From the IMG/VR virus record IMGVR_UViG_641201351_000001, positions 88,373 through 152,372 of that record: 64,000 bases of DNA, one strand, 5' to 3'. The translations under genes were made by a program, and so were the position numbers. The stretch's first letter is position 1, and each line of letters opens with the position of its first letter. The DNA is from a virus. Its lineage: Duplodnaviria; Caudoviricetes. The notes under the pieces are model-generated. The model did not search any database. It was not told the origin of the DNA and saw only the letters and a program-made list of their open reading frames with translations. Of this stretch, positions 8,983 through 30,030 are shown piece by piece.

Positions 8983-9202
8983 CCCACCACCTCCCCTTAC
9001 CTTAAAGGTTACTACTAAAGCCTTATAAGGTCAAGGGGGAATAGGAAAAGGCCTTGTGGGGATTGAGAGAGGGAACAAGACTTTACGAGGAAAAGACTAG
9101 CAGGGAAATATATATTTAGGATAGCGTTTACTTGATTTCTCTTTAAGTTTTGAGAAATAAAAAATCATTGGAAAAGAAAGATTTGTGAGAATATTAACCC
9201 TA

Positions 9203-11951: not shown

Positions 11952-12089
11952 CTTTTACCTCCTTTGCCCCTCAAGGGGGCGCTTTTAGCTTAACACAAGC
12001 CGCTACGCAAGTCAAGCGCCTAGGCAAGACAAAAGAAGCAAAGCGCCTAGGCGCAACAAAGAGAATAAGATAGCGTTTACTTATTTTTC

Positions 12090-13601: not shown

Positions 13602-13765
13602 CTTTACCTCCTTGCCTACCCAAGGCGGGGTAGGCTATGCCTAGCCTATCACTACTGAACTATTTAGTCAAGGGGGCCTGGTAAGCAGAAGGAGAAGCGC
13701 ACTAAGGAATAGGATAGCGTTTACTTATTTTTTGCGGATTAAAAAAATAATCAAAAACATTTCGC

Positions 13766-14158
13766 TTAAAATAGCTCTCTAAATACTACCCTATCCTCAA
13801 GCTTTATGTCAAACTTCATCAGGTCTTCATTTAAAAAGCAGTAAAAACTAATATATGCAAAAATGTGGTAGTCATTGTCTAACTTTTCTGTATTTTTGTT
13901 TTCAACGATTTTGTAAAGAAACTTTTCGTTGCGAATATCAGTATTTTTTGAGAAGATTTTTTCGTCATTAATACAGATGTCTACTTTTACCTTGTGAATC
14001 TTGTTCACTTGAGAGAGGATTTTTCTATTAAGTTTTCGCCAAAAGGGAATAAGGCTACTATGTTCTTTCATACGATAAATAACTTCATCAGATTTTCTAC
14101 ATTGCGAAAGGTTTTGTAGTGTAAGTACAACCTTTACAAATACTTCTTTTCTCTTCAC
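13766..14158 (-). CDS. hypothetical protein ending ELF
   Basis: GTG directly after upstream stop, with GGAGGTG SD. Confidence 0.8.
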   Translation of the reverse strand: MKRKEVFVKVVLTLQNLSQCRKSDEVIYRMKEHSSLIPFWRKLNRKILSQVNKIHKVKVDICINDEKIFSKNTDIRNEKFLYKIVENKNTEKLDNDYHIFAYISFYCFLNEDLMKFDIKLEDRVVFRELF

Positions 14159-14704
14159 TTAAATCACCTCCTTATTAAGGCGAAGCTTCAAGATGATTTC
14201 CAGGAAAATGTACTCGTAAAAATAGTCAGAATATACTTTATATCCGTTATATGTATCAACTTTTCTTTTTCTATATATTGCGGCGTGGATTTCTGGTCTT
14301 TTAACATTATTTTCCAAAAGCTCCGGCAACGCTTGTTTAAAGAACTCGTTAATATTTCTAAGAAGGTAATCCGAATATTTTTCATCATCATTGGGCAAAG
14401 CTTTGAATCTTTTTGGATTTAAACGCTTTCCACGAATATTTGTTTCAATGTTTATATAGAACATATTTTGCTCATTGGGTAAGAATGTGTGCAAGTAGCA
14501 ATATAACTTTTCGGCATGCTCTAATACCTTACAGAAATCTTCAAACTTAGGATTTGAAACTATCCTCATTTTGAAGCTATCATAGATTTCCTTAGAATCT
14601 TCACCACCTATTTCGTTCATAAAGTAATGTGAGGCACCAACATAATATTCGTCAAGATCAGCTATCATTTCCCATTTCCACGCCTCTTTGAGCTTGTCTT
14701 TCAC
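14159..14704 (-). CDS. hypothetical protein ending EVI; family with 14705 and 15244
   Basis: WKWEMI, YYVGxSHY, SNPKFED shared with 14705..15244. Confidence 0.85.
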   Translation of the reverse strand: MKDKLKEAWKWEMIADLDEYYVGASHYFMNEIGGEDSKEIYDSFKMRIVSNPKFEDFCKVLEHAEKLYCYLHTFLPNEQNMFYINIETNIRGKRLNPKRFKALPNDDEKYSDYLLRNINEFFKQALPELLENNVKRPEIHAAIYRKRKVDTYNGYKVYSDYFYEYIFLEIILKLRLNKEVI

Positions 14705-15244
14705 TTAAATCACCTCCCTTAGCATTTCCAGATTTAAAGAAACTTCAAAAAGGACATACTCATAAAATAACGAATCCTCATAATCTTCAATGTCATCATC
14801 TTCTAACTGCACCTTACTTCTCCTGTATATAGAAGCATATATTTTAACATTCTTAATGTTATCTTTCAAAAGCTTTGGCAAGTTCTTTTTAAATACATGA
14901 TTTATCCTGTTCATCATAAAATCTGAATAGCTTTTCCACCTTCTGGGTGATACATAAGAAGTATAAGGCTTTGTGCTTCTAGAATATGGCTCTGTTTCAA
15001 TGTCAATATACAATATGTCCTCCTCCTTGGGAAGAAAGGTTTGAAAATAGGCATAAAGGCTTTCTGCATGCTTTAAGTTTTTGTATAAATCTTCAAACTT
15101 AGGATTTGAAAATATTTTTATTGAAAACTCGGCGTATACTTTCTTTGTATTTTCTTCATCAAACTCATCTACAACATAGTGAGAACTGCCAACATAGTAA
15201 GAAGATAGTTTAGTTATCATTTCCCATTTCCAGATTTTGTTCAT
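14705..15244 (-). CDS. hypothetical protein ending EVI, paralog of 14159..14704
   Basis: clear sequence similarity. Confidence 0.85.
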   Translation of the reverse strand: MNKIWKWEMITKLSSYYVGSSHYVVDEFDEENTKKVYAEFSIKIFSNPKFEDLYKNLKHAESLYAYFQTFLPKEEDILYIDIETEPYSRSTKPYTSYVSPRRWKSYSDFMMNRINHVFKKNLPKLLKDNIKNVKIYASIYRRSKVQLEDDDIEDYEDSLFYEYVLFEVSLNLEMLREVI

Positions 15245-15735
15245 CAGAACACCCCCTTTATCGCAAGAAGAAGTTCTGTTTCAAATGTGGCATATTGAGT
15301 ATATATTTCAGATATTTTGTGTCTTCTCTCAATACCAAGAAGCATCTTAATCTTTTTTGTGTTTTTTGAAACGATTTCTTTTAAAACATTCCTAAAATAT
15401 TGGTTCATTTCAGAAACGATATAGTCTGCATAACTTACACAAGCTTTTACCTCTTTTACATAATCAGGGTGCAAAAGATACATGCCTTCTAAATAGGTTC
15501 TAATGAAAAATCTTTCATCACCATTTAAATCCTCCACAAGATATAAATAAAAATCTTCTCCTTCTTTAAGGAGTTCATAAAGTTTTTCAAAGCTTTTGTC
15601 TTTTACGATTCTTTTTGAGAACTCATCAAAGATTCTAAAACTTTCTATTTCGCCGCCATCATCTATAATATAGGCATGACATTTTACAGACATCATTTCT
15701 ATCTCAGATATTGAATCCCACAAAAGCTTTTGCAC
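15244..15735 (-). CDS. hypothetical protein ending GVF, distant paralog of the two downstream genes
   Basis: similar spacing of W, H-Y, FE-LY, YxDY; promoter TTGACT-17-TATCCT at 15754-15782. Confidence 0.8.
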   Translation of the reverse strand: MQKLLWDSISEIEMMSVKCHAYIIDDGGEIESFRIFDEFSKRIVKDKSFEKLYELLKEGEDFYLYLVEDLNGDERFFIRTYLEGMYLLHPDYVKEVKACVSYADYIVSEMNQYFRNVLKEIVSKNTKKIKMLLGIERRHKISEIYTQYATFETELLLAIKGVF

Positions 15736-16078
15736 GGCTCACCTCCCAGGTCTAGGATAAGGCTCAAGAGGAGTCCAGTCAAGCCCACTCTAGGAAAAGA
15801 TTTGATTTTGCATTTCAAACTTTTTATTTTTCGCTAAACACAAAATGAACTTCTACGCTAACATTTTTATTACTGCACCTTATTTTTGTAAACTACATAA
15901 AAAAATAGCTATTCTTCTAGTATCTTTGGTTTGGCTTGTGTTAAGGTTTAGGATTGCGTTTATTTTTTTAGCAAAAATCTTTAAGCTTTCTCACAAAAGT
16001 TCAATTTATGAGTAAACGCTTAATCATAGTTTGCGAAAAAAAAAATAAAAAATCATTAGAAGAAGGATTTCTTATAGT

Positions 16079-16330
16079 TTAGAAAATCTTTAGATGTTCT
16101 TCGTGCCTCCAAGAATTCCTTGAAACCCAAACATTTAGATTTGGATTATTTTTTATCAAGCTTTCGGCTGAAATTCCAAAATACTTTTCAAATACATCTT
16201 TAAGCTTCTTATTCAAATCTTCCTCATCAACATACTTGTCATTAATTAAAAGATCATATTCATCGATGTTCTTGAAGAATTCCTTGACAACCTTGCCTAG
16301 CGCTTCTTTGAGAGTCCACATTCCTATCAC
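16079..16330 (-). CDS. small hypothetical protein (ends KIF)
   Basis: promoter TTGACA-17-TAGGAT at 16342-16370; the true start may be the downstream ATG. Confidence 0.75.
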   Translation of the reverse strand: MIGMWTLKEALGKVVKEFFKNIDEYDLLINDKYVDEEDLNKKLKDVFEKYFGISAESLIKNNPNLNVWVSRNSWRHEEHLKIF

Positions 16331-16430
16331 CTCCGATGCTCATCCTAGCAAAGGTGTGTCCTTTTGTCAAGCTCTCCTCTTCAATCAAGCGCACTCCTCT
16401 TCAAAGGTATTGCGAATTTTTTTCTAGCGC

Positions 16431-16907
16431 TTAAAAAACTTCGCTTTTTTCGTATTCTGTTCTTATGTTTAATTCATACTTAACATTTTTGCTATTGTTT
16501 TTATTGTTTGCTAGAATATTAAAAACCAAAATAAAAGTGCGGTCTGAAAGTGATTCGCTAAACTTTAAGAGTTTCTTGTAAGTCTTTATTACATATTCCT
16601 CATCTTGCTTATAATCAAAGTTCAATATAACTTTCTTACTCATTGTTGTCTTTAATGTTCTTTCTTTCTTAGTTATATTTCTTTTTCCTGTAGCCTCAAA
16701 ATAAATCTTCATTAGCGCTTTTGTATTTTCTTTTGAGATAGAGTTTTTGAGAATTTTAAAGTATTTTCTAAATAACGCCTCAATATCGTAAAGCTTTTCT
16801 TCTCTAAAATCAATTAGAAAAGCGATGCTTTTCTTCACTTCTTCTTTTTCTTTATTTGCGACAACTGAAAATACTAAATGATATTTCTTTGGTGCAAAAG
16901 GTGTCAT
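16431..16907 (-). CDS. hypothetical protein ending EVF, leaderless
   Basis: promoter TTGACA-17-TAGCTT at 16914-16942. Confidence 0.8.
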   Translation of the reverse strand: MTPFAPKKYHLVFSVVANKEKEEVKKSIAFLIDFREEKLYDIEALFRKYFKILKNSISKENTKALMKIYFEATGKRNITKKERTLKTTMSKKVILNFDYKQDEEYVIKTYKKLLKFSESLSDRTFILVFNILANNKNNSKNVKYELNIRTEYEKSEVF

Positions 16908-17049
16908 GTCTTCAAGCTAACACAATAGCGAAACGCTGTCAAGCGTTGGTACACTAATAATAAAGTCTGGAAAGTCTAGACGATAGACACCTTGGTACAC
17001 TATTACCAAAGTCTGGAGGATAGAGATACTAGCTGAAATATTGACATAG

Positions 17050-17556
17050 TTAGACATAAGGAAAAGTTCTCCTAAACTTAGTCTTTAGTGAAAATTCAAT
17101 TGTCTTTTCACCAGTAAAGAAGTGAGTTCCTAGAGAAAAGGTAAAACTTTTTGCATCTTTATTCTCAAAGATTCTATCTTGTGCTTTTTTAGTTGTAAGA
17201 TAAAAGTCTTCAAGTAATGCGTTTACTTCCTTTGGTGAACCTAGAGTTTTGTATTCGATGTGTGAAGCATACTGATTTAATTTAAAGTTCACATCAAAAA
17301 AGGTTTCTTCGTAGATGCTTAGAATTAATTTTGTTGGCAAGAATTTACTAAACAAATCTAGGAAAAGATTATAGGTTCTAAAAATCTCATCGCTATACAA
17401 ATGAAAAGTGTGCAAGTGTTTTGTAGACTTGGTTTTGAAGTTGATTGATTTGTTTATTTTTTTAATGTTACTTTCTTCTAGTGAAAGGATAACTTCTACT
17501 AATTCAAAGGCAGGATGACAATAAATTTTTACTTTATTTTCTTGCGTGCTTTTCAT
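17050..17556 (-). CDS. hypothetical protein, leaderless
   Basis: start re-set to ATG 17556; promoter TTGACA-17-TATACT at 17563-17591. Confidence 0.8.
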   Translation of the reverse strand: MKSTQENKVKIYCHPAFELVEVILSLEESNIKKINKSINFKTKSTKHLHTFHLYSDEIFRTYNLFLDLFSKFLPTKLILSIYEETFFDVNFKLNQYASHIEYKTLGSPKEVNALLEDFYLTTKKAQDRIFENKDAKSFTFSLGTHFFTGEKTIEFSLKTKFRRTFPYV

Positions 17557-17596
17557 GTTTTGAGTATATGCGATTTGCTTTTTGTTGTCAAGTGTG

Positions 17597-18163
17597 TCAG
17601 AACACATCTTTTGTTTTTTTAAGAACTAAGGCTGCTTTAAGGATATAGTAGAAGTGTTTTGACTCCTCTACAGACGATTTTATGATCAAATAGTTGTATA
17701 CAAAAATTAATCTAGCATTTCGTACAATCGCTTGTTTTGTAGATTCGTTTAGGTTTTCGTTTATTTTTGAAACAAACAAGCTTAAATTTAGGTCTTCAAT
17801 ATAATCTTTTTGCTGTTTGTATTCTACTGAACGAATATCGTTGTTTTCGTCTTCAATTCCTTCTACTAATGCGAAGAATGTAGTTTTGCCTTGAGGATTT
17901 CTTGCTTTGTTCGCTAAAAATCTTTTAAACAGCTTTATTACATCATAAGTTCTCATTAGCGAAACAGTATTTTTTGTTTCGTTGTAATTAAAATCATTTC
18001 TATTAAACCTTTCTTCCTCTGCTGCCAAAGTAAAAAAGCTTTCTATTACTTCTTCTTCTGATTTATCTTTATTGGTGTAGTGTATATAAAAGCACAACGA
18101 AAAATTATCTAGTTCGTAAGGATAGGTATTGATTAACTCAAAAGACATCTTTGCCTCCTTCAA
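17597..18163 (-). CDS. hypothetical protein ending DVF
   Basis: N-terminal PYxL motif shared with neighbours. Confidence 0.8.
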   Translation of the reverse strand: MKEAKMSFELINTYPYELDNFSLCFYIHYTNKDKSEEEVIESFFTLAAEEERFNRNDFNYNETKNTVSLMRTYDVIKLFKRFLANKARNPQGKTTFFALVEGIEDENNDIRSVEYKQQKDYIEDLNLSLFVSKINENLNESTKQAIVRNARLIFVYNYLIIKSSVEESKHFYYILKAALVLKKTKDVF

Positions 18164-18704
18164 AAGAAAGCGTTAATTTAAACAAATTAGTCGAGTTTAT
18201 AGCAGCTTCTTTTGCTTTGTATTTGTAAGAAAGATAAGATATCACTTCAAATTCTTTAGCTTCGAAGTAAAAGACTTTAGGCAGTCCTTGTGCGATATAT
18301 TTGTTTAGGTTTTCGCTAAATAGCGAAATAGAAAATTCTTTTATTGGCGTTTCTATCTTTATCAGCTCATGTTCGTCAAGGTATGCGCATTCTGCAACAC
18401 ATGTCATTTCAAAGTAAAAGAACCTTTCTTTAATAAACTTTTTATCTTTTGAGAAATAGTCTTTCGCAAAATTTTCAAACATATCACGAATTTTTTCTTC
18501 TCCTTTTAGAATAAACAAGTTTCTTTCTTCATCAAAGTCGATGAGATTTTCTCTTAGTTCTATGTAGTTGTCAATAGCGCCAATTTTTTCATATCCTCCA
18601 TTAATTCTTGAATAAAACTTAGAGAAATGTTCAACCTTTGCGCTTTTAAGCGAAAAAGGAACAAAGTTATTAATTTCAATCGCTTTGCTTTTTTCCTCTT
18701 TCAT
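18138..18704 (-). CDS. hypothetical protein ending DVF
   Basis: start re-set after AAGGAGGTG; PFSL motif. Confidence 0.8.
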   Translation of the reverse strand: MKEEKSKAIEINNFVPFSLKSAKVEHFSKFYSRINGGYEKIGAIDNYIELRENLIDFDEERNLFILKGEEKIRDMFENFAKDYFSKDKKFIKERFFYFEMTCVAECAYLDEHELIKIETPIKEFSISLFSENLNKYIAQGLPKVFYFEAKEFEVISYLSYKYKAKEAAINSTNLFKLTLSFEGGKDVF

Positions 18705-18717
18705 GCTCACCTCCTTC

Positions 18718-19167
18718 TCAGAACAGCTCATCTCTTACTAGTCTTACTGATATGTCTACAGAACGCTTCTTTCTTGATAGCTCATTATCTAAAAACTCAA
18801 CGTAGATCGTCATGTAAAATATAGCTTTTGGAAAGTCTTTGTTTTTGCTCAAAATGTCGTATAAAGTGTTTCTTATTTCATTCGTTATGTCAAACTTAAA
18901 AATTTCTTCTAAAGAGTAAGACTTTTCGTAGTCGTGAATTATTTCTTGCTTTTTGCTAGGTTCAGGATAAATCATAAAGAAAGACAAAACAACAGAAAAT
19001 ATTCCTGCTTTTTTTGCCTTTGCGATTATAAAGTCATCTCTTAGTTCTCTTCTAATGATTTCAAATTCGTTAAGAAATTCTTCATAATTTTCAAAGTCTT
19101 TTTCTTCGTTAAGATGTCTTAGCGCTATTGTAGCGCTTTCAAATTTAGCGAAAGGCAAACCTAACAT
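18718..19167 (-). CDS. hypothetical protein ending ELF, paralog of 20956..21447
   Basis: FxNYEEFL, SYxLEExFxxDITN, FxKAxF shared. Confidence 0.85.
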   Translation of the reverse strand: MLGLPFAKFESATIALRHLNEEKDFENYEEFLNEFEIIRRELRDDFIIAKAKKAGIFSVVLSFFMIYPEPSKKQEIIHDYEKSYSLEEIFKFDITNEIRNTLYDILSKNKDFPKAIFYMTIYVEFLDNELSRKKRSVDISVRLVRDELF

Positions 19168-19179
19168 GTTCGCCTCCTT

Positions 19180-19674
19180 TCAAAACAAGTCTTCGTGCAT
19201 ATAGAAGAAGTTTTTGCTGAGATGAAATATTAAATTAGAATTTTCAAAAAACATATCTACATCAATGAAAATGCTTTCGCTTCCTGTTACTAAAGCGCCA
19301 AAGCGAAGCATTGAATAAGATGCTTTTTCAAGAAATTCTTTGATTTCTTCGTAATTCTTTAATGCGAGGTTTTCTTTATAAGACGCTTTAGGAAACATTT
19401 CTTTGTAATAGCATCTAATCTCAACCTTATATTTTTCGATGTCAAATTCTCGCATGAGATTGAAAAATTTGTCTTTAAAAGACAACGCTTTTCTGCTATT
19501 AGTAAAGACTAAACCTTCTTCATTTTTCTTAAGAACATTTTTTGTTCTTTTAAGAACGACTTTTTCTTCAAAATTTCTTCTGTAGTCGTCTGTCTTATCA
19601 ATAACAAAGAAGCTTATTTTTACTTTTTCAAGCTTGTAAGGAATTTCTTCTTTCACAAAGAAGTCAAGTTTCAT
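19180..19674 (-). CDS. hypothetical protein ending DLF, paralog of 20400..20918
   Basis: FVKEExPYK, LxFxNSxKAL shared; promoter TTGACA-17-TATAAT at 19699-19727. Confidence 0.85.
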   Translation of the reverse strand: MKLDFFVKEEIPYKLEKVKISFFVIDKTDDYRRNFEEKVVLKRTKNVLKKNEEGLVFTNSRKALSFKDKFFNLMREFDIEKYKVEIRCYYKEMFPKASYKENLALKNYEEIKEFLEKASYSMLRFGALVTGSESIFIDVDMFFENSNLIFHLSKNFFYMHEDLF

Positions 19675-19768
19675 TTTGCACCTCCTCTTGCAGAGGGGAT
19701 TATACAACGGGACAGGACGCATGTCAAGGCCTCAGGAGTTAATTAAAAGACATTTAATTTCACTAGAG

Positions 19769-20272
19769 TTAAAAAGGATCATTTCTCGCTATACGAATTG
19801 TCATTTCTAGATTTGTTTTTACATCTGAATCGTAGTTGTCTTTTATTGACTCGTAGATTAAGTAAAACGAAAAAGAAATCTCATAAAAGCTAGGAATTTC
19901 TTTCATAGTTTTCTTAACAATCTTTTTCAAGGTTGACTTAATATTTAGCGAACTGAAATTCTCAATGTTGTAGTGAACAGGCTCAACCTGATAGAAATCT
20001 CTTTCTTGTTGACCTGACAACAAATCTTTAGCATAAAAGTAAACAGAATAAAAATGATAAGCATTAAAATGCAAGTTTGCTATTTCTTCTTTTTGTTTCA
20101 AAGACTTAAAGATATTTAGTTCTTTTATTATCCTTTTGTGAAGCAGTCTAAAAGCGCTGATAAATTCAGAAAAGTTTGAAGTGTTTAGATGATAGTTCTC
20201 AACAGATGTTTCTTTGTCTTTTCTAGCGAAAGACAACTTTGCGCTATTTACTTTCGCATAGCTAGTCAACAC
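19769..20272 (-). CDS. hypothetical protein ending DPF
   Basis: start re-set to GTG after AGGAGGTG; promoter TTGACA-17-TATCCT at 20295-20323. Confidence 0.8.
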   Translation of the reverse strand: MLTSYAKVNSAKLSFARKDKETSVENYHLNTSNFSEFISAFRLLHKRIIKELNIFKSLKQKEEIANLHFNAYHFYSVYFYAKDLLSGQQERDFYQVEPVHYNIENFSSLNIKSTLKKIVKKTMKEIPSFYEISFSFYLIYESIKDNYDSDVKTNLEMTIRIARNDPF

Positions 20273-20399
20273 AACGCACCTCCTCTCAAGCTCTAGGATA
20301 AGCGCTATAGGACGCTTTGTCAAGAGTCTAGTGTCGTCAACTAAGCGAAGCGAAATAAGGCTTTATCTTGCGTGAAAATCTTATTTAAACTTTAATTCG

Positions 20400-20918
20400 C
20401 TAAAACACGCTTAAAAACTTGTACTTTAAGGATGTGTTAAAAGAAAACACTAACGAAAATTCATCTATGTCAACATAAAGATCCTTTCCTGAAGTCAAAA
20501 TGAAATTGTTAAGGTTTAGTTTAAGCGCTTCTTTTATCGCTAGCGAAGAAAAACTTTTAAGAATTTCTTTGCTTTCTTCTAGTTTGCTTAGTTTGTGATT
20601 TTGCTTTAAGAAGACTTTGAAATTTGGATCCTCATAAAATGCAGAAACTTTAAAATCGTAATGCTCAATATTAAAAAGTTCTAAGGCGTTGAAAAAATGT
20701 TTTCTAAGTTCTAAAGCTTTTGTGCTATTAATAAACAGCAGATCTTCTTTATCTTTTCTAAATTTCTTTTTGTTTGGCGTAAATATTAATTTTTCTTTTC
20801 GAACTAATTTTCTAGAATAGCTAATTCCATAACTGACTTCTTTTTCGATGTAAAAATAAAGGCTAACTCTAGTGATTTTGTAAGGCATTTCTTCTTTGAC
20901 AAAAAGCTCAAACTTCAT
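20400..20918 (-). CDS. hypothetical protein ending SVF, paralog of 19180..19674
   Basis: start re-set after AGGAGGTGG. Confidence 0.8.
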   Translation of the reverse strand: MKFELFVKEEMPYKITRVSLYFYIEKEVSYGISYSRKLVRKEKLIFTPNKKKFRKDKEDLLFINSTKALELRKHFFNALELFNIEHYDFKVSAFYEDPNFKVFLKQNHKLSKLEESKEILKSFSSLAIKEALKLNLNNFILTSGKDLYVDIDEFSLVFSFNTSLKYKFLSVF

Positions 20919-20955
20919 CTTCCACCTCCTTAGGAATGTCCTTCCTGGTGGTTCT

Positions 20956-21447
20956 CTAGAAAGGAAAATTGCTAACAACTTCTACTGAACACGATATGGA
21001 CTGTTTTTTGTAAATTTCCTTATTTTTAAAATAAGCTGCATAAATCAACAAATTAAATTGCGCCTTTGAAAAAAATCCACAGGTTTTTAAAGCTTTATAT
21101 AAGAGATTTTCAATGCTGTTTGTTATATCAAGGTCAAAAACTTCCTCTAGTTTGTAAGATTCTCCAGAGATATATTCTCCAAAGAGGTCTAAGTCATCAA
21201 TGAGGAGTCCTTTCTCTATTGGTAAATAGATAAGGTCAGAAAAAGAGATGGCATTTATCTCTAAATTATTTCCTTTAGCAAAAAGATATTCATCTTTTAC
21301 TTTGTTAATATGGTTTTTAAGCTCCATTAAAAATTCTTCATAGTTGCGAAAACTTTTGGCTTCTTCTAAAGCAAAATCTTTTTTTATCTTCTTAGAATAT
21401 TCTGTTTTGACATAAGCGATTTTGAATTCTGTGAAGGCTAACCTCAC
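20956..21447 (-). CDS. hypothetical protein ending FPF, paralog of 18718..19167
   Basis: promoter TTGACA-17-TATAGT at 21475-21503. Confidence 0.8.
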   Translation of the reverse strand: MRLAFTEFKIAYVKTEYSKKIKKDFALEEAKSFRNYEEFLMELKNHINKVKDEYLFAKGNNLEINAISFSDLIYLPIEKGLLIDDLDLFGEYISGESYKLEEVFDLDITNSIENLLYKALKTCGFFSKAQFNLLIYAAYFKNKEIYKKQSISCSVEVVSNFPF

Positions 21448-21625
21448 GCTACACACCTCCCCTCTGCTACCCCAACTATAAGCCTCACAAGGCCCTATGT
21501 CAAGGGGGGGTTAGTGTGTTTTTACTAGAAGAAGCACGGCGAGGCTTTTATTGTGAGTGAAATCTTGTTTAAACATTTTTGGGTGGTACACTATTATCCA
21601 AGTCTGGAAGGACAAACAAACAACG

Positions 21626-22141
21626 CTAGAAAACCTCATTACCCTTCTTGTATTCAAACTTCACTACGAAGAGTTTTTCTGTGCTTTCAACTTCTTTGTT
21701 TGCTAGTAGTCCCTGTAGAAGCGTAGGAAACTTGATGATAGTTGCATTAAAGCGAAAGTAGTAAGTAATGCTCACCATTCCTTCTCTTAAAGCTTTTATT
21801 GTGATAGATTTTCCAAATAGGTTTATCATTGAAGCGAATTCGTTTTCATTAAAGTTTGCAATTATGTTGTTTTCTTTACAAATGTAAATCGGCAGAGAAA
21901 CTAGTTTGTAAGGTGAGAACATTAAGTAGGAGAACTCAAAAGATGAGTCTACTTTTACTAGTCCAGACTTTGAAGATAGGTCTTTTTTAAATTCCTCTAA
22001 GTAGTATTTGACTTCTTCAAAAAAGTTGTAAAAATCAAAATAATCTTTGTATAGTGATTGTTTTAATGCTTTTTTATTTTTTGCCTCCTTGTAGAGAATT
22101 GTGATAAAATCTAAGGAGTAAGGAAGAAAGCTCTCAAACAT
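21626..22141 (-). CDS. hypothetical protein ending EVF
   Basis: PYSL motif; promoter TTGACC-18-TATTAT at 22163-22192. Confidence 0.8.
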   Translation of the reverse strand: MFESFLPYSLDFITILYKEAKNKKALKQSLYKDYFDFYNFFEEVKYYLEEFKKDLSSKSGLVKVDSSFEFSYLMFSPYKLVSLPIYICKENNIIANFNENEFASMINLFGKSITIKALREGMVSITYYFRFNATIIKFPTLLQGLLANKEVESTEKLFVVKFEYKKGNEVF

Positions 22142-22188
22142 GTCTTTATCCTCTCGCTTGCGATAATATCGCCTAAATCATAGGCAGG

Positions 22189-22773
22189 TCAAGAGGTTGG
22201 TACACTATTATAGGAATCTGGAAGATACTCACTAACAGCGAAAGAATAAAGAAATACTATCTCTAGATAAGGATAAAGAAGTTCAAAGTATTTGTATCTT
22301 CCTCTAGCAAACGATGCTACTATTTCGACACCTTCAAGATTTTCGTTTAATTCTTCTTCTGTATTATTCAAGAAGTTTTCTTTTTCTTTAATTAAAGCGT
22401 TATAGACATTTTCAACTGTTGTGTTTCTTCCTAGGTTTACTTCTTTGATTTCAGGAATGTAGCTCAAGGTCTTTTCTTTCATGTTCTTTATTTGTTTGTG
22501 ATAAATCTTGACGAAAGAAAGCGTTAAATAGAGGTCAAGAGAGAAGTTTGCGTTTAGAACTTTGTCTAAAGATAAAGTTTTTTTGATGAATGTCTTTATG
22601 ATAAAAGACAGCTTTTCTTCACAAAATTCTTTTTTGCGAGTATCTAATTCAACATAGATCAAGGTTCTTTTTGATGTATTTCTTATTTCCAGCTTTGATA
22701 GCTTTCTTATTTCCAGAGAAGAGCCGCTATCAAAGTGTATTGTTGCTTTTTCTAGTGTGATGTTCGTCTTCAT
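22189..22773 (-). CDS. hypothetical protein whose 3' end reads through motif B (LPDSYNSVPTS)
   Basis: similar to 23793..24305 (EEK...FIKxT, LExV). Confidence 0.8.
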   Translation of the reverse strand: MKTNITLEKATIHFDSGSSLEIRKLSKLEIRNTSKRTLIYVELDTRKKEFCEEKLSFIIKTFIKKTLSLDKVLNANFSLDLYLTLSFVKIYHKQIKNMKEKTLSYIPEIKEVNLGRNTTVENVYNALIKEKENFLNNTEEELNENLEGVEIVASFARGRYKYFELLYPYLEIVFLYSFAVSEYLPDSYNSVPTS

Positions 22774-22784
22774 GTTTCTTTACC

Positions 22785-23282
22785 TCAGAATAAGACATTA
22801 AACTCAAAAGAAACTTCTATGCGCAAATCTTGTGAAATAGTCGCTTTATTAGTTTTTAACTTTGCGAAAGATAAAAAGAAGACATTGAGCGTTTTTTCTT
22901 CTTTAATAGCATATTTATAGCGTTTATTAATTTCACGCTGCATTAGACTAAAAATCTTTTGTTCACTAAATTCTTCTAAGCTAATAAACTTCTTTCCTAA
23001 GCGCTTTCTTAGCTCTTTGTAAGGCATATCGAAATAATAATCGCTTGATAGCAAAGATACGACTGCAAAATGTCCTAATTTGAAAAAAGGCGAATTAAAG
23101 TATCTTTTTAAAATCTCAAAACTCCTTGAGAAATTAGTAAACGCTTGATCAAAGAATTCGCTTCTTTCTTCTTCAAAAAACTCAGTTTTCCTAGTTGAAA
23201 GAAGGCTATCGTTAATCAAATATTCTTTTATAAACCTCAAACTTTTAGGTTTTTGCAGCGAAAAAAGCTCTTCGATTTTCAT
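22785..23282 (-). CDS. hypothetical protein ending VLF, paralog of 24317..24823
   Basis: MxIExL, KRx...FxxGxFxVxSL, EEFSExK, LKT shared. Confidence 0.85.
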   Translation of the reverse strand: MKIEELFSLQKPKSLRFIKEYLINDSLLSTRKTEFFEEERSEFFDQAFTNFSRSFEILKRYFNSPFFKLGHFAVVSLLSSDYYFDMPYKELRKRLGKKFISLEEFSEQKIFSLMQREINKRYKYAIKEEKTLNVFFLSFAKLKTNKATISQDLRIEVSFEFNVLF

Positions 23283-23290
23283 GCTCTCAC

Positions 23291-23761
23291 CTAAAAGACT
23301 TCTTTTCTTTCTAGAGTAGCTTCTACTTCTAGAAAGACTTTATCAAGGTTTCTTGTTAGATAGCCTAGTTCTATGAAGATTACTATTGCAGTAATTTCTT
23401 TTTCGTTCCTAAACGCTTCATTGTAAATTTGACTTATGCTTCCTTCAATAAATTTTAGGACTGACTTTTTATTAACGAAAGAAGTATTTTTAACGCCCAA
23501 ATCTTCAAATTTAGGTGTTCCGTTTTTTGTATTTGTGATTAGTGTATAGTGTATTTTTAAAATGTCTTGCACAACATCGCCTTCAGAATTTTTTGTTTGC
23601 TGATAGTATTTTGAAATGAAACCTTTAAGGTACTTATAAAAGTCTTTAGCTTTTTCTTCTTTAAGTATCTTTTTAAACGAAAAATTATTTTCTTCATCTT
23701 TTGAGTTTTTAAAGTATTCAAAGGCAAACTTCACTTTCACGAATTCAAAAGGCGCTAGCAT
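23291..23761 (-). CDS. hypothetical protein ending EVF, leaderless
   Basis: promoter TTGACA-17-TAGCAT at 23768-23796. Confidence 0.8.
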   Translation of the reverse strand: MLAPFEFVKVKFAFEYFKNSKDEENNFSFKKILKEEKAKDFYKYLKGFISKYYQQTKNSEGDVVQDILKIHYTLITNTKNGTPKFEDLGVKNTSFVNKKSVLKFIEGSISQIYNEAFRNEKEITAIVIFIELGYLTRNLDKVFLEVEATLERKEVF

Positions 23762-23792
23762 AGCTTCATGCTAGCACGACAAGTCAATCGTG

Positions 23793-24305
23793 TCAACTTG
23801 GTACACTATTACTAAAGTCTGGAAGATGTACTATGTCGTAGTAGTATACAACCTCTAGAGATGCAACATGATCATCCTTATAAGGTGATCCTTTAGTGAA
23901 GATTATTGAAATGATAATCTGATCCTTTTTGTCTATGTTTTTTAGCTTTAACAGCTTTGTTAGCAATTCGTTTCTTTCTTTGAGGATTGTCTTAAGCACT
24001 TCTTCTGGTTTTATATCGTATCCAAGAGGTTTTTCTTTAGTATCAAGGTCTTCTTTCCTCATGTTGTGATTGACTGCTAAATAGAAATCTTCGTCTTCAT
24101 ATACTTCAAGAAGTTTTTCAATTTCTATTGTTTGTTTTATAAACTTAAGCATTAGTTGAATTGCTTTTTCTTCTAGTTCTTTTTCTTCGTGATCTTTGTT
24201 GAAGGTAAATTTGTATTTATTTTCTGCTGCTTTTAAAAGTCCTTTTGACGCAGCAAAAGACTCCTGTAAGTAAAAAAGTGCGATTTCGCTGAGCTTCAGT
24301 TTCAT
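23793..24305 (-). CDS. hypothetical protein ending in motif B peptide (LPDFSNSVPS)
   Basis: start re-set after AAAGGAG. Confidence 0.8.
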   Translation of the reverse strand: MKLKLSEIALFYLQESFAASKGLLKAAENKYKFTFNKDHEEKELEEKAIQLMLKFIKQTIEIEKLLEVYEDEDFYLAVNHNMRKEDLDTKEKPLGYDIKPEEVLKTILKERNELLTKLLKLKNIDKKDQIIISIIFTKGSPYKDDHVASLEVVYYYDIVHLPDFSNSVPS

Positions 24306-24316
24306 CTCTTCTCCTT

Positions 24317-24823
24317 TCAAAAAACGCCGTGCAAAGAGTAGTGCATTTTCAAGAACAATTTTTTTACTATCAAAGATGTTTCTGTCTTTAGCGCAACAAA
24401 GAACATAGATTCTAATGATAGGTTTTCGTTATTTAACAAAGCTTCTCTGTATTTCTTGTAGAAGCATTCTTCTGCTAAACGAGAAAATTTTTCTTCGCTA
24501 AATTCTTCAATTCTATAAACATTTTCAGGAAATCTATCTAGCAGACTTTTTTCTCTGCCATAAATCTCAAAATATTCTTCAGAAAAACTTCCTAAAGAAA
24601 AAACTACAAAATAGCCTTTGTGAAAATACTTTGACAACACAAACCTTTTGACGATGTTTAACTGCTTCAAAAATACAGCATTAAAGCTTTCAATTTCTTC
24701 TTCTGGAAAATTGTAGTAATATTTCTGCTTTCTAGCTTTAACAAATTTTTTCTTCACGAAGTGCTCAGTCGACACTTCTACGAAAAATATTTTGTGTGTT
24801 TTAATCAAGTCTTCAATGCGCAT
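24317..24823 (-). CDS. hypothetical protein ending GVF, paralog of 22785..23282
   Basis: GAGGTG SD; similarity. Confidence 0.85.
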   Translation of the reverse strand: MRIEDLIKTHKIFFVEVSTEHFVKKKFVKARKQKYYYNFPEEEIESFNAVFLKQLNIVKRFVLSKYFHKGYFVVFSLGSFSEEYFEIYGREKSLLDRFPENVYRIEEFSEEKFSRLAEECFYKKYREALLNNENLSLESMFFVALKTETSLIVKKLFLKMHYSLHGVF

Positions 24824-24829
24824 AACACC

Positions 24830-25348
24830 TCAAAAGCTAGGAAGAACAATGTCGTTTATTTTTATCGTGTAAGGAGGCTTTAAAGAAAAGATGTGTTCTA
24901 TTTCTAAAACCCAAACTTTTTCGCTTTGTTTTATTTCAAAAACTATTCTTGGCGCTATAGATATCGTGTAATCGTTAAAGTTTGTAATATTTTTTCTTAT
25001 TTCATTTAGTGTTTTTTCTGTGCTTTCAATCATTTCATAAGCTTTCTCTTTGAGAAAAAACGAAAGCTTCTTTTTCTTGTCTGACAAAATTTCGTCTTGT
25101 TTAATGTTTTTTATGTCCTCGAAGTAAAACCTTGTTTTTCCTAAAACATAGCCTCTATAATTGACGAATATGTAAATAGAGATTGTCTTTACATCCTGCT
25201 TTAGCGATTTCAATACAAAGCTATCAAGCGTTTTAATAAGTTTGTCTTTTTCATTCACAGAAAAAACAACATTTGATGCATTCGTGTAGCTAAAGAAGGG
25301 TTTGTATATTCCTTTCTTTGTGATTAAGCAAAGCCTTTCTAATCTCAC
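24830..25348 (-). CDS. hypothetical protein ending PSF
   Basis: GGAGGAG SD; promoter TTGACA-17-TATGAT at 25369-25397. Confidence 0.8.
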   Translation of the reverse strand: MRLERLCLITKKGIYKPFFSYTNASNVVFSVNEKDKLIKTLDSFVLKSLKQDVKTISIYIFVNYRGYVLGKTRFYFEDIKNIKQDEILSDKKKKLSFFLKEKAYEMIESTEKTLNEIRKNITNFNDYTISIAPRIVFEIKQSEKVWVLEIEHIFSLKPPYTIKINDIVLPSF

Positions 25349-25479
25349 TTTTCTCCTCCACAGAAGAAATCATAGAACACAAACCTAAGGCTGTCAAGCG
25401 TTGGTACACTATTAATAAGTCTGGAAGATGTAAATGACTGACACTTGAAGACTAGGTGTCTATATGCTAGTATGTAGCT

Positions 25480-26016
25480 ATGCATCCTCAGGAAGGTTGG
25501 CTTTTTGATGAGTTTGTCTTCTTGAGAAGAGCGTTTTCTCATTGTTCATATGTTGACAGCAATAACATAGTTCGTGATTATCAGGAAGAAATTGAAAGCT
25601 TAGAAAAACTAGAGGCTATTGTTGAATTAGCAAAGGAAAAATTAAAAGAATATCATAAAGAATTAAAGGAGCTAATTAGGTTTGGATTAAGAATAGAAGA
25701 AAATTTTCATTTAATCGCTATAGCAAACTTTTATAAGAGGTCATTAAGACACAAGTACGATAGAAAGTTAACGCTTGACGAAGTAATGTCTTTTTCTATT
25801 AGAGATGCGATAGACGAAACTATATCGCACTTCTTGAGATTTTGTGAAATTGAAGATTTATCTTTGATTTTGAGCTTGAAGTTTCCTTATTTGTCTGTTT
25901 ACAAGCCTATGTTAATTTCTAGAGCTTATGATTGTTTTATGATGATTCCTTATACTTCACAGCTTTTTCACATTAGCGCTGAATTTCTCGTTGATAAAAA
26001 TTTGCTTGTTTTCTAA
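25480..26016 (+). CDS. hypothetical protein ending LVF, inverted relative to the array, leaderless
   Basis: promoter TTGAAG-17-TAGTAT at 25445-25473. Confidence 0.8.
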   Translation: MHPQEGWLFDEFVFLRRAFSHCSYVDSNNIVRDYQEEIESLEKLEAIVELAKEKLKEYHKELKELIRFGLRIEENFHLIAIANFYKRSLRHKYDRKLTLDEVMSFSIRDAIDETISHFLRFCEIEDLSLILSLKFPYLSVYKPMLISRAYDCFMMIPYTSQLFHISAEFLVDKNLLVF

Positions 26017-26660
26017 AAAAATTCTTCTATTTCAGCGATTAAAGAATAATCGAACAAATTTGGTTCGCTTAAAATCTTCACTATCTCTCTAGTGTGTTTG
26101 TCAAATATTTTAGTATCTATTTGTTTTGTGTTTGTCGAATAAAGATCTGATGAAATTTCTTCATCGAAAACATTTAATCGAAAATCAAACTTGAACCGAA
26201 AGGAAATTTTTGACATTAAGCCAAAATTTTTAAGAAAATACATCGTTGCTTTTTCTAACTCTTTTTTTAGAGATAAGGAAGGAAGTTCAGAAAGCTTGTA
26301 TTCTTTTTTCAAGTCAAATCCTTTGTCTTCTCCATAGAAGGCTAAAGCGCTAAATTCTAAAGATTCAAAAGTAACGACATTTAATTTGTTGTTGCTGCTT
26401 TGATTTCTTACTACTCGTTTTATATTATTTAATTCACGATTAAACATCTTAGCTCTATCTTTAGCGAGATTAAAGAAGTTTTTTATTTCTTCAAACACAT
26501 CACAGTAGTTTGGAAAAAAGTAGCTAAATTTTACTTCGCTAAACTCGCAAGAATTTTTTGCAGGCAACTTCTTATCTGCTTTCTTTTCTAGGTAGCTTAT
26601 GTAGACGAAGCCTCTCGTGAAATTTAGTATGTCAAAGGCGCTGAAGGACACTTTAAACAC
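26013..26660 (-). CDS. hypothetical protein ending EEFF
   Basis: promoter TTGGCA-17-TATACT at 26678-26706. Confidence 0.8.
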   Translation of the reverse strand: MFKVSFSAFDILNFTRGFVYISYLEKKADKKLPAKNSCEFSEVKFSYFFPNYCDVFEEIKNFFNLAKDRAKMFNRELNNIKRVVRNQSSNNKLNVVTFESLEFSALAFYGEDKGFDLKKEYKLSELPSLSLKKELEKATMYFLKNFGLMSKISFRFKFDFRLNVFDEEISSDLYSTNTKQIDTKIFDKHTREIVKILSEPNLFDYSLIAEIEEFF

Positions 26661-26782
26661 CTCCCTCCTACCTCTCTAGTATAGAGGCTAGGCGCAAAGC
26701 TGCCAAGCCTTTATTTTTAGGGTAAGCCTTATTTAAAAGTTTAAACATTTGCTAGATAAAAATCTTTTATGTTCATTATCTC

Positions 26783-27352
26783 TTAAACGCTAGGATGAGG
26801 AGTTGGTACACTATTGTATAAGTCTGGAAGGTTGAATAAATGCTGCCCAAGATCTAAGACTTTGTATTTCAGTTTAAAGACAGAACTGTAGGGAGTTTTG
26901 TGTCTTGATCTTTCGTGAGAAGATAAGCTAACAACAAGATCAAATCTAGTTAAAGGAATTCCTTTTCTTAGACTAAAGAATTCAATTAGTTCTTCTATTG
27001 AATCCTCGATGAAGAAATAAAACGCATTTTTTATTCTCTTTTCATTTGGCATTACTAGCCTCGCAAATTGAATTTGCTTAGACATTTCTAAATCTAGCTT
27101 GCATTCTTTGTTTTTTCCTAGTGAATAGACATTTATGCTTTTTGAGATCGTTAGGTCAAAGTCTTTCTTAATTATTGCTTTTGACAATACTTTTTCTATA
27201 AGCCTCTCTAAAGAGTTTTTATTTTTCGCTGATATTTCTGCTAAATAATGAAACTTAAACTCTTCAAGGTTCTTTTCATTGAAATACTCGTAGTTTATTT
27301 CGATTTGATTAAGAAAAAAGGTTTGCTTGTTGATTTTGATAAGTTCTTTCAT
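26783..27352 (-). CDS. hypothetical protein ending in motif B peptide (LPDLYNSVPT...)
   Basis: 189-aa ORF. Confidence 0.75.
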   Translation of the reverse strand: MKELIKINKQTFFLNQIEINYEYFNEKNLEEFKFHYLAEISAKNKNSLERLIEKVLSKAIIKKDFDLTISKSINVYSLGKNKECKLDLEMSKQIQFARLVMPNEKRIKNAFYFFIEDSIEELIEFFSLRKGIPLTRFDLVVSLSSHERSRHKTPYSSVFKLKYKVLDLGQHLFNLPDLYNSVPTPHPSV

Positions 27353-27354
27353 CT

Positions 27355-27885
27355 TCAGATCTCAATTTTTTTTCTTTCAAAATACACTAAAAACCAAATG
27401 ACATACTTTTCAGGAAAAGGTATTGTTTTATTTTTAAAGCTTGCGACAATTCTTTGCGCAAAAGATATCTTCAAGGTCTTGTTTTCGTATATGCAGTCTT
27501 TAAACATGCTATTTTCGATTATCTTTTCTATTCTTTCAGAAATCATTTTTGATAGGTCTACTTCGCTGACATCTTCAATGAATTCTTTGTTTGAACCTAG
27601 AAAATTTGTTAAATTTTTTATTCTCTTTTTCTTTTGTCCTTGTACTTCAATTTCAACATCATTAGCGATGACGACATCTAAATTCTCTTTTTTGATTTCT
27701 TTGAATGTTTTAGCGAGAAATTTTTTTGCAGCTTCAAAGTCTTCTGAAACAAACTTTCTTTGGTTGAATAATTCGTTTGTAAGGCCGCTAAAATCAATTC
27801 TTCTATAAATGCTAACTGCACAATTTTTCATTAAAAATCTTTGTTCGCCTAAGTCTTTGTTATAAAACAAAAGCTCTTTTCTCAT
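27355..27885 (-). CDS. hypothetical protein (ends IEI)
   Basis: start re-set after AGAGGAGGT. Confidence 0.75.
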   Translation of the reverse strand: MRKELLFYNKDLGEQRFLMKNCAVSIYRRIDFSGLTNELFNQRKFVSEDFEAAKKFLAKTFKEIKKENLDVVIANDVEIEVQGQKKKRIKNLTNFLGSNKEFIEDVSEVDLSKMISERIEKIIENSMFKDCIYENKTLKISFAQRIVASFKNKTIPFPEKYVIWFLVYFERKKIEI

Positions 27886-27898
27886 CCTAGACCTCCTC

Positions 27899-28330
27899 TT
27901 ATGTGTAATCTTTAAAGACTTCTTCATCTAGCGCTCTTTCAAACTCTTCTTTAGTGAGCGTTATAATCTTTCCTTCCTCAAAGAAGTGAATGCGCTTGAA
28001 GTCTAATTCATTTAATATGCTTGCGCAATACAAGCAAGGTCTAGTATTCTTAAGAAGGTTTTTTCTGTAGCCGAAAACAAAAATATCACTAGGATAAAAG
28101 TTTTCTTTTCTAGCCTTGTGAAAAAAGTCTAACTCAGCGTGAAGCGCTGAAAAGTGAGGATAGTCGTATTTAACTTGCTTGCTGATGATGTATTTATTTT
28201 CGCCAATTAGAATTTCTTTTCTATTTACGCCAACGCAATACATCTTCACTTTGCCTTTTGGTATATTCGCATCTCTTTCTAGCAAAATATTCATTAGACG
28301 AAGTAAACGCTCAATCTTCATGTGCGTCAT
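27899..28330 (-). CDS. cytidine/deoxycytidylate deaminase-superfamily protein
   Basis: HAE and PCLYC zinc-binding motifs. Confidence 0.85.
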   Translation of the reverse strand: MTHMKIERLLRLMNILLERDANIPKGKVKMYCVGVNRKEILIGENKYIISKQVKYDYPHFSALHAELDFFHKARKENFYPSDIFVFGYRKNLLKNTRPCLYCASILNELDFKRIHFFEEGKIITLTKEEFERALDEEVFKDYT

Positions 28331-28391: not shown

Positions 28392-29102
28392 GTGTTTACC
28401 TTGCTGAAGTTAGGCGCACTAGACCTAGGCTCAAGAAGACAGATGATTGTAAAAGGAGTCGTAGAAGACGATGTACTGATAGTTAAAAGCTACAACTATT
28501 CTTACATTGAAGAGGAAGAAAAGAAAGAAAAGATTAGAAAGTTAGACGAGTTTTTAGAGAACAATGTTTTAAATGAAGACCTTGATACAATCATTTTAGA
28601 AAGAAGATTTAAAGACAAAAGAAAAAATAAAATACTAACAAAAAAAGAAGGATACAAAACTAACATAGATGCGTTTATCACTTTAAGCGAATACGCTAAG
28701 AACAAACTTTTGAAAAGCAATATAAAGTTGCTAACAGTAGAAGCTAGTAATATTGAAGCTTTTAAAATAACGAGAAGAAAAGGAAACTTTTCTTCACCAG
28801 GCTGGAAGCAAATTCTTACTGGAATCAATAAGCCTAACGACAAAGAAATTGAAAAAGAAATAAACAGTCTTGTAAATAAAGGAAAAATCATATACGAAGT
28901 AAACATTGAAGATTTACTTGCGCAAAAAGTTAAATTTTACATAGACTTCATTGACGCTGTAGGAATGCTTTATGCATACATTAAAAAACCAGAAATTTAT
29001 GCGTTAGAAGAACAAAATGATAACAAAGAACCTGAAGCAGACTTATACGAAGAAATTACAAAGGAGTTGTCAAAAAAACTTCTTGGCCCAATAGTGTCTT
29101 GA
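28392..29102 (+). CDS. RuvC/RNase H-fold nuclease, putative Holliday junction resolvase
   Basis: ALDLG near N-terminus, IILER, WK, IDAVG acidic pattern. Confidence 0.55.
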   Translation: MFTLLKLGALDLGSRRQMIVKGVVEDDVLIVKSYNYSYIEEEEKKEKIRKLDEFLENNVLNEDLDTIILERRFKDKRKNKILTKKEGYKTNIDAFITLSEYAKNKLLKSNIKLLTVEASNIEAFKITRRKGNFSSPGWKQILTGINKPNDKEIEKEINSLVNKGKIIYEVNIEDLLAQKVKFYIDFIDAVGMLYAYIKKPEIYALEEQNDNKEPEADLYEEITKELSKKLLGPIVS

Positions 29103-29633
29103 GTGAAATAAAACTCTTTTTGTGTTTAATGAAATTAAAAATTTTTTAGTGTTCCTTTTTATCTCATTGCTAATAACAAAAGCGTTTATTTCTTTGTAGT
29201 ACTTATAAGCGAACCTAGCGTCCTCATTAAAGTCTGCAACGAAAAGAATTAAGTCTTCTAGATAATAAGAATTCACGATGTAGCTTTTTATCGTCTTGTA
29301 GTCTTCCTTTGTCTTTATGTGATAGAAGTCAAAAACTTCTTCAACTTCAATGAATTTTTTATACGCCTTATACAAAGGCAAAGGATTTTGCAGGAAGTAA
29401 AAAAACAAATATCTAGAAAAAGTTTCTAAATAGTTAGTGCTAAAGCGATATCTTTCAAACTCTGAGATTTTTCTTATAGACTTGTATTGCTTAACAAAAG
29501 CGAACTCTTTCAGTATCTTCTTTTGTATTGGACTTATGTTAAAAATAATCCTATCGATGAAGTAAACGCTTCTAGCGTTTCTTTTAAACGCTTCGCTTGC
29601 TCTTAGAATTGGAAACGATAGTTTAGTGTTCAC
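29070..29633 (-). CDS. hypothetical protein (ends KFF)
   Basis: 187-aa ORF; TGcTATAGT extended -10 upstream. Confidence 0.7.
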   Translation of the reverse strand: MNTKLSFPILRASEAFKRNARSVYFIDRIIFNISPIQKKILKEFAFVKQYKSIRKISEFERYRFSTNYLETFSRYLFFYFLQNPLPLYKAYKKFIEVEEVFDFYHIKTKEDYKTIKSYIVNSYYLEDLILFVADFNEDARFAYKYYKEINAFVISNEIKRNTKKFLISLNTKRVLFHSRHYWAKKFF

Positions 29634-29697: not shown

Positions 29698-30030
29698 TGA
29701 AACCTTGATTTTTGGGCAAAATTGGGGGTTTTATTTTCTTATGTCGATTTTCCTATAGGCGAAACAAAATTATAGGGCGACATAAAATCAAAATCTTTGA
29801 TTTTTGCTAAAAATTGAAAGTTTTATTTTTTTATAAGATTTTCCTATAAGCGAAATAAAACTTTAGGTGGTGTGAAAATAAAAATCTTTGAATTTTGCGC
29901 AAAATTGAAGGTTTTAAAATTTCATAAGGTTTTGCTATAGGTGAAATAAAAAACTGAAAGAACAAAAAACTAAAATCTTTGATTTTTTGGCGAAATTAAA
30001 AGTTTTAAAATTTTGTAAGGTTTTATAGGG
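29698..30030. repeat. non-coding degenerate tandem repeat, ~91-bp period, ~3.6 copies
   Basis: AAAATCTTTGAtTTTTG..AAAATTG..GGTTTT..TAAG.TTTT.CTATAGG.GAAA units starting ~29698, 29790, 29881, 29972. Confidence 0.85.

Follow-up and report, generated by a model that had tools for sequence, protein, structure and literature searches.

The closest described system to the DNA element examined here is the PeSL cassette (promoter-early stem-loop) of T4-type phages, in which a repeated early promoter plus stem-loop mediates modular shuffling (Arbiol et al. 2010, PMC2839356; see also Comeau et al. 2014, PMC4122927). Our element, motif B, is a two-box motif that recurs in a 64,000-nucleotide (nt) stretch of a virus genome (the window; bases 88373-152372 of the 152,372-bp record IMGVR_UViG_641201351_000001, which is 98% complete). 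Positions below are window positions unless called genome positions. As in the PeSL system, the copies would be short, conserved regulatory units in one orientation among the small, non-essential, fast-evolving early open reading frames (ORFs) of a large myophage; the unit would include a sigma-70-type early promoter, here at the 4 of 8 copies that abut a consensus-like predicted -35/-10 pair; and genes are gained and lost at the units between close relatives. Unlike PeSLs, motif B has no stem-loop or terminator, its conserved part consists of two boxes upstream of the -35 box rather than of promoter plus hairpin, and only half of its copies abut a promoter.

Class I and class II activator sites and UP elements act upstream of sigma-70 promoters. 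Motif B resembles them in the four copies that lie immediately upstream of a -35 box and in an orientation fixed to the promoter, but its boxes are neither A/T tracts nor a dyad, the 3-6 bp spacing is not phase-locked, and half of the copies lie well away from a promoter. The MotA boxes of T4 replace the -35 box at about -30 in middle promoters. Motif B would be comparable as a phage-specific box that marks a temporal promoter subclass for a host sigma-70-type polymerase, with one promoter set driving replication genes (here at copy 1), but it keeps an intact -35 box and lies further upstream. With dif, lox and att sites it shares two conserved arms, a short variable centre and an overall length of about 25 bp. 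It differs from them in having arms that are not inverted and a centre of variable length and sequence, and in that no recombinase gene was found.

Eight copies of a two-box motif

A preliminary description of the window had reported seven copies of the motif in the same orientation. The pattern GGTACACT-N(7-8)-ARTCTGGAR returned exactly these seven, all on one strand, starting at 16948, 16994, 21585, 22199, 23800, 25403 and 26805, where 100 dinucleotide shuffles of the window gave an expectation of 0; GGTACACT by itself occurs 9 times against 0.47 expected. The two copies described as a tandem pair are indeed 46 bp apart, with 16994 upstream of 16948. The search for further copies in the rest of the genome, which had been proposed, yielded an eighth at genome position 25326-25348, so that the whole 152,372-bp genome holds 8 forward and 0 reverse copies, and a control with the pattern read backwards gave 0. 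We refer to the copy outside the window as copy 1 and to the window copies, in ascending order, as copies 2-8. A scan for the two boxes with up to 5 mismatches found the same eight copies only, each with at most 1 mismatch, while shuffled genomes gave 0-5 matches. No decayed copies were therefore present in the genome at this tolerance, and the motif family is sharply bounded.

Since the local genes are on the minus strand, we read the motif on that strand, where it consists of (c/t)TTCCAGACT, a short variable linker, TAATAGTGTACCA, and then A(c/g). The two arms are near-invariant, as the preliminary description had stated, but half of the core that it regarded as variable is conserved. The imperfect dyad that it saw in the inner arms did not hold up, as only 4 of the 5 inner bases pair and the whole arms, TTCCAGACT and TAATAGTGTACCA, are not reverse complements.

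The motif was then followed across related sequences. By sequence identity we assign the genome to the phiYS40/TMA group (phiYS40-type) of Thermus thermophilus myophages, because its motif region is 97.7% identical to that of Thermus phage TMA and 84.5% identical to that of Thermus phage YS40_Isch, with 99.4% and 94.3% identity, respectively, in the baseplate protein. The other relatives compared were the IMG/VR genome G001 (157,225 bp) and the metagenome fragment L159 (5,758 bp, 78% identical). TMA carries 8 copies, YS40_Isch 6, L159 4, and G001 6 by the pattern plus a degenerate one with two changed bases in the right box, giving 33 copies across the five genomes and fragments. The span from CCAGAC to GTGTACC is 23 bp in 24 of the 33 copies, 22 bp in 2 and 21 bp in 7. 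It differs even between orthologues, copy 8 measuring 23 bp here and 21 bp in YS40_Isch, G001 and L159, and the linker sequence differs both among the eight paralogous copies and among orthologues.

Motif B is constrained much more strongly than its surroundings. Over seven orthologue sets from 4-5 genomes, anchored without gaps, 139 of 147 arm columns are invariant compared with 250 of 420 columns in the 30-nt flanks (Fisher p about 5e-18, for columns that are not independent). At copies 5 and 8 the motif is retained although the flanks are unalignable between lineages, and copy 1 is invariant among orthologues in 27 of 27 columns.

Nothing resembling the motif turned up beyond this phage group. 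It occurs in 3 of 50,697 records of a phage collection, all of them Thermus phages (TMA and YS40_Isch being the named ones), and elsewhere in one IMG/VR genome (G001) and one metagenome fragment (L159). In IMG/VR, a looser version of the pattern gave at least 115 single chance matches and a tighter version one true relative, G001. Among 185,579 species genomes scanned for exact matches, none had the motif. Across these collections, motif B is confined to the phiYS40-type group of Thermus phages. A full-text literature search with three 11-mers of the motif returned no Thermus paper, the primary phiYS40 and TMA papers lying outside that search.

Copies and predicted promoters

All eight copies have the same orientation as the minus-strand promoter downstream of them, and four adjoin it. 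These four, said in the preliminary description to lie 3-6 bp upstream of a minus-strand -35 box, have gaps of 5, 6, 3 and 5 bp, and each -35 box is followed 17-18 bp further on by a TAnnnT -10 box. Copy 2 (16948-16972) ends 5 bp before TTGACA at 16942-16937, within a sigma-A-type promoter, TTGACA-17-TAGCTT (16914-16942), and the ATG of the gene 16431-16907 lies 6 nt after its -10 box. Copy 5 (22199-22223) ends 6 bp before TTGACC at 22192-22187; it lies under the read-through tail of ORF 22189-22773, and its promoter, TTGACC-18-TATTAT (22163-22192), precedes the gene 21626-22141. Copy 6 (23800-23824), under the tail of ORF 23793-24320, is 3 bp from TTGACA at 23796-23791, in the promoter TTGACA-17-TAGCAT (23768-23796) of the gene 23291-23761, the ATG of which is again 6 nt after the -10 box. 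Copy 7 (25403-25426), with a linker one base shorter, ends 5 bp before TTGACA at 25397-25392, in the promoter TTGACA-17-TATGAT (25369-25397) that precedes the gene 24830-25348; it is located in a divergent intergenic region shared with the plus-strand gene 25480-26016. With the -10 box set at -12 to -7, the four adjoining copies would span about -39 to -66 relative to the predicted start. The gap between copy and -35 box is kept in the orthologues of copies 2, 6 and 7, and for copy 5 in 3 of 4 genomes.

In the remaining four copies, 43-98 bp separate the motif from the next promoter downstream on the minus strand. Copy 3 (16994-17018), in tandem with copy 2, is present here and in TMA. The preliminary description had two copies about 80-100 bp upstream of a -35 box, which agrees with copy 4 (21585-21609), 18 nt past the stop of the gene 21626-22141 and 81 bp upstream of the -35 box at 21503, and with copy 8 (26805-26829), which overlaps the end of ORF 26783-27352 and is 98 bp from the next -35 box. 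Copy 1 is 43 bp from the -35 box of a DEAD-helicase operon. On the other strand it lies about 10 bp from a promoter, TTGACA-18-TATAGT, that faces the gene named YS40_028 in the YS40_Isch annotation. Motif B marks boundaries of early-gene cassettes, usually just upstream of a promoter.

Coding and RNA-level signals

Three upstream ORFs, 22189-22773, 23793-24320 and 26783-27352, extend into the motif, and a conserved coding tail (...LPDxxNSVP) was considered as a source of the conservation. This was ruled out: in an alignment of 31 paralogues the tails covering the motif extend beyond the usual (E/D)(V/L)F end of the family, as read-through past its C-terminus, and YS40_Isch has a stop just before copy 6 and another inside copy 8. 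Folding of the eight copies as RNA, on both strands, with two flank sizes and at 37 and 65 °C, gave z-scores around 0 and no consistent structure, and the array has no more terminator-like sites than chance predicts (8 against 8.1 expected). Motif B is not an RNA hairpin or an intrinsic terminator. Because no co-directional, minus-strand gene lies upstream of copy 1, at least this copy must act as DNA.

Gene gain and loss among relatives

L159 lacks the genes 21626-22141 and 22189-22773 through a deletion between copies 4 and 5. At its junction stands a single motif whose upstream flank matches that of copy 5 and whose downstream flank matches that of copy 4. One flank gives way to the other about 10-20 nt upstream of the motif, where the two copies are themselves similar in sequence. 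This is the pattern expected from homologous recombination between repeated intergenic units. In YS40_Isch and G001 the gene 22189-22773 is lost and copy 5 is retained, and both have one copy in place of the tandem pair 16948/16994.

Contigs from two metagenome runs, coded X1 and X6, have long matching sides but lack the gene 22189-22773, copy 5 and the copy 5 promoter, so that the neighbouring genes there form one operon. At window 22147-22796 the joint connects 22146 or 22129 to 22797, with 19-36 other letters in between. In an X6 contig the right box, 4 nt and TTGACA stand directly upstream of the homologue of 22785-23282 (a single loose end), which suggests that box and promoter travel as a unit. 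Three further contig joints, 16803>25402, 17017>20844 and 21610>23833, have matching sides of only 25-31 letters; they were judged to be cross-matches of the repeated motif and not rearrangements.

Indels bounded by motif units are thus seen between relatives among the small variable ORFs, but not all array indels are of this kind. The ends of those at 19178/19773 and 20927/21489 are free of the motif, and the motif would therefore be one recombination substrate among several. Taken together, the relatives apparently gain and lose genes at box-plus-promoter cassettes by homologous recombination. The cassette shuffling proposed in the preliminary description stands to this extent, as genes come and go at or beside the motif, but the one junction that could be resolved looks homologous rather than site-specific.

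Recombinase searches

The preliminary description had noted that no recombinase was visible in the window, and the same is true of the whole phage genome: profiles PF00589 (Phage_integrase) and PF00239 (Resolvase) had 0 matches at E <= 0.1 in the 152,372 bp, a search that left the host Xer outside its scope. As controls, PF00589 matched 14 of 14 genomes and PF00239 13 of 14.

The genes for "resolvase-like" and transposase proteins in TMA and YS40_Isch are held by IS607-type elements, which are absent from the studied genome. The YS40_Isch insertion (L010 13813-15488) lies within copy 7, with GGTA on one side and AAGTCTGG on the other, and the TMA insertion (L001 about 13590-15720) within the homologue of ORF 26783-27352; at both junctions TA precedes the GTCCCCC end of the element and AATA-C follows its other end.

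The early-gene array and its neighbourhood

The window copies punctuate an array of small, diverged, paralogous early genes on the minus strand (13766-27927; about 130-215 aa), nearly all of whose products end in (E/D)(V/L)F. It forms part of a larger set of about 40 small minus-strand ORFs in window 1-30000. The ORFs of window 270-29633 (minus) together with 25480-26016 (plus), about 40 of 130-250 aa, belong to one very diverged family; most of the proteins end in (E/D)(V/L/I)F, and BLASTP connects only neighbouring pairs or triplets. Paralogous pairs are formed by 22189-22773 with 23793-24320 and by 22785-23282 with 24317-24823, and the right-hand part of the array is built from old tandem duplications.

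Among ten array proteins searched, none matched a Pfam family above its curated cut-off, and the PHROGs families that the array proteins match are all phage-specific and of unknown function. For 23291-23761, an AlphaFold model made from the paralogue alignment predicts a sandwich of two beta-hairpin-plus-helix units and a further beta-hairpin (predicted local distance difference test (pLDDT) 78.7, predicted template modelling score (pTM) 0.65). Foldseek found nothing in the PDB at E <= 0.001 for this model, and its best VIA-align match, to part of a kinesin core with a Z of 8.5, does not rise above background.

For several first genes, at 16907 and 23761 (minus), 25480 (plus) and genome position 25247 (minus), exactly 6 nt separate the -10 box from the start codon, as in TAGCAT-gaagct-ATG. 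This spacing predicts leaderless mRNA, even from promoters with a good -35 box.

The left half of the array has an intergenic signature of its own, in 879-976, 1850-2108, 4009-4130, 5760-5964, 7035-7137, 8255-8460, 8983-9202, 11952-12089 and 13602-13765. An upstream stop is followed by a T-rich stretch and then AAGTAAACGCTATCCTAAATATAT, and 40-110 nt after AAGTAAACGCTATCCTAAATATAT most of these regions have a C run directly before a TTGAC -35 box. This is probably the "Motif A" of the preliminary description. About 3.5 tandem repeats of a 91-bp unit occupy 29705-30024, in the 389-bp intergenic region that precedes ORF 29070-29633, and could form an iteron-like or regulatory array.

A 143-aa ORF at the end of the array (27899-28330, minus) matches the cytidine/deoxycytidylate deaminase zinc-binding family (25.4 bits, cut-off 25). 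The YS40_028 homologue downstream of copy 1 (L002 1535-2971; genome about 25360-26796, plus), divergent from the DEAD-helicase replication operon, matches ParB-CE weakly (22.1 bits, cut-off 23) and shows, by eye, DxD and H motifs reminiscent of a primase-polymerase.

Discussion

With moderate confidence, and judging from sequence comparison, we propose that motif B serves some of the early sigma-A promoters as an upstream element at which a protein docks. The motif would be the upstream half of a repeated "box plus sigma-A promoter" cassette of the early-gene arrays, its two boxes serving as double-stranded DNA docking sites for a sequence-specific protein, which might be an early product of the phage, a host factor or part of RNA polymerase. 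Docking would set the strength or timing of the motif-linked promoters. These would form a sub-regulon comprising part of the right-hand array and the divergent promoters at copy 1, between the DEAD-helicase replication operon and YS40_028. As the element is repeated, it would also supply short patches of homology where cassettes duplicate or delete. We favour the docking reading because of the fixed orientation, the adjacency to the -35 box, the two invariant boxes and the retention of the motif after gene deletion. In sigma-70 systems, activators and the alpha subunit of the polymerase act in the zone that the promoter-adjoining copies would cover.

Several observations weigh against this proposal. 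Half of the copies sit 43-98 bp from the next -35 box, and for copy 8 this distance shifts among relatives, from 98 bp here to 33 bp in YS40_Isch and about 62 bp in G001 and L159. A gap of 3-6 bp to the -35 box and a 2-bp range in arm spacing are loose for a rigid contact between activator and polymerase. G001 keeps copy 5 though the neighbouring -35 box is gone, and copy 5 is dispensable, since the X1 and X6 contigs lack it together with its promoter and the gene 22189-22773. Most other early-type promoters of the genome have no motif, and tandem duplication could account for part of the orientation bias. Only one helix-turn-helix (HTH) protein is annotated, the YS40_018 homologue; its Myb/HTH match falls short of the threshold (23.9 bits, cut-off 24.4), and it is no more than a candidate name for the binder. 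Of the two readings offered in the preliminary description, the regulon fits: the copies are locked in orientation, abut the -35 box in 4 of 8 cases and are kept while their flanks are replaced.

In a more specific version, possible but on the unlikely side, motif B would be the operator of a phage-encoded or virion-delivered activator, controlling a delayed-early regulon to which a portion of the right-hand array would belong, along with the DEAD-helicase operon and YS40_028 through their divergent promoters. It is unlikely that the motif is instead only a patch of homology at cassette boundaries, homogenised by recombination or gene conversion and used as a crossover point in the manner of a PeSL, with no dedicated regulatory protein. 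The L159 junction, with its copy 5 flank upstream and copy 4 flank downstream, is what such a patch would leave behind, and the tandem pair that is single in YS40_Isch and G001 is in keeping with it. An identical 21-bp version at three loci in YS40_Isch, G001 and L159 suggests homogenisation; RecA/RadA-, Erf- and RecB-family proteins are implied for the phage by the YS40_Isch annotation; and the T4-type PeSL offers a precedent (PMC2839356). Yet conversion limited to blocks of 9 and 13 bp, with the linker in between left free and the flanks unrelated, is hard to obtain by homology-driven exchange, and two separately invariant boxes resemble selection on sequence. Copy 1, moreover, lies 80 kb away with no flanking cassette variation and all 27 columns invariant, and the indels at 19178/19773 and 20927/21489 took place with no motif at their ends. 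That a site-specific recombinase, tyrosine or serine, either the host Xer or an unrecognised phage enzyme, excises or shuffles cassettes at the motif is very improbable. Two arms around a variable middle, direct repeats compatible with excision and cassette differences near the copies among relatives would all suit such a site, and the preliminary description had likened it to tyrosine-recombinase targets. That comparison fails: a lox/dif-type site is not supported, because the arms are not inverted repeats, the spacing takes three lengths over a 2-bp range and varies even between orthologues, and the genome has no recombinase gene by the searches above. As the linkers differ between copies, partner sites would have no common overlap region. 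In addition, the L159 junction switches upstream of the motif and not in the linker, and the IS607-type serine transposases of TMA and YS40_Isch are later insertions.

Two alternatives concern transcription or its product in other ways. On the plus strand, T-G-G-TACACT fits TGnTAnnnT, and the motif might be an extended -10 promoter, running antisense into the 3' end of the upstream operon or sense into 25480-26016 and YS40_028, with its start in the linker and AAGTCTGGAAG as the conserved 5' end of the transcript; we consider this improbable. All eight copies read TGGTACACT on the plus strand, copies 1 and 7 point at plus-strand genes, a start within the linker would tolerate variable spacing, and the genome has clear -10-only leaderless promoters in front of late genes. 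The abstract of the phiYS40 study is said to describe -10-only middle and late promoters. The match itself carries no weight, however, because the genome has 513 instances of TGnTAnnnT and shuffles have about 640. The three middle bases and the four bases that follow are invariant in 32-33 of the 33 copies and are not needed by sigma-A, so that a -10 box leaves the invariance of all 13 bases unexplained; TACACT is a poor -10 box next to the late promoters seen here, and downstream of copies 1 and 7 the plus strand has better promoters. We judge it more improbable again that the motif acts at the RNA level, as a signal for processing, stability or factor-dependent termination at the 3' end of the transcript of the upstream operon. 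Such a signal would account for copies 3, 4, 5, 6 and 8 starting 6-33 nt after the usual C-terminus of the family, a distance steadier than that to the promoter, but neither strand shows secondary structure, copy 1 has no minus-strand gene upstream, and the four adjoining copies keep their spacing to the -35 box between genomes. The docking element thus remains the reading that we prefer.

A 2007 study of phiYS40 by Sevostyanova et al. reportedly found that its promoter classes are transcribed alike by the host holoenzyme in vitro, and is said to have left open the cause of the early/middle/late switch. A later commentary states that phiYS40 "yielded no transcription factors" (PMC4124052). If motif B were the operator of an activator, it would supply the missing temporal-control mechanism of these phages, which serve as a model for thermophile transcription. 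A conserved, promoter-linked two-box element would be a bait for DNA pull-downs and a target for mutation. The motif marks only a subset of the early promoters, with that of the replication operon among them. Repeated regulatory cassettes that drive the turnover of arrays of orphan ORFs (ORFans) would thereby extend from the T4-type coliphages to an unrelated thermophilic myophage, here without a stem-loop.

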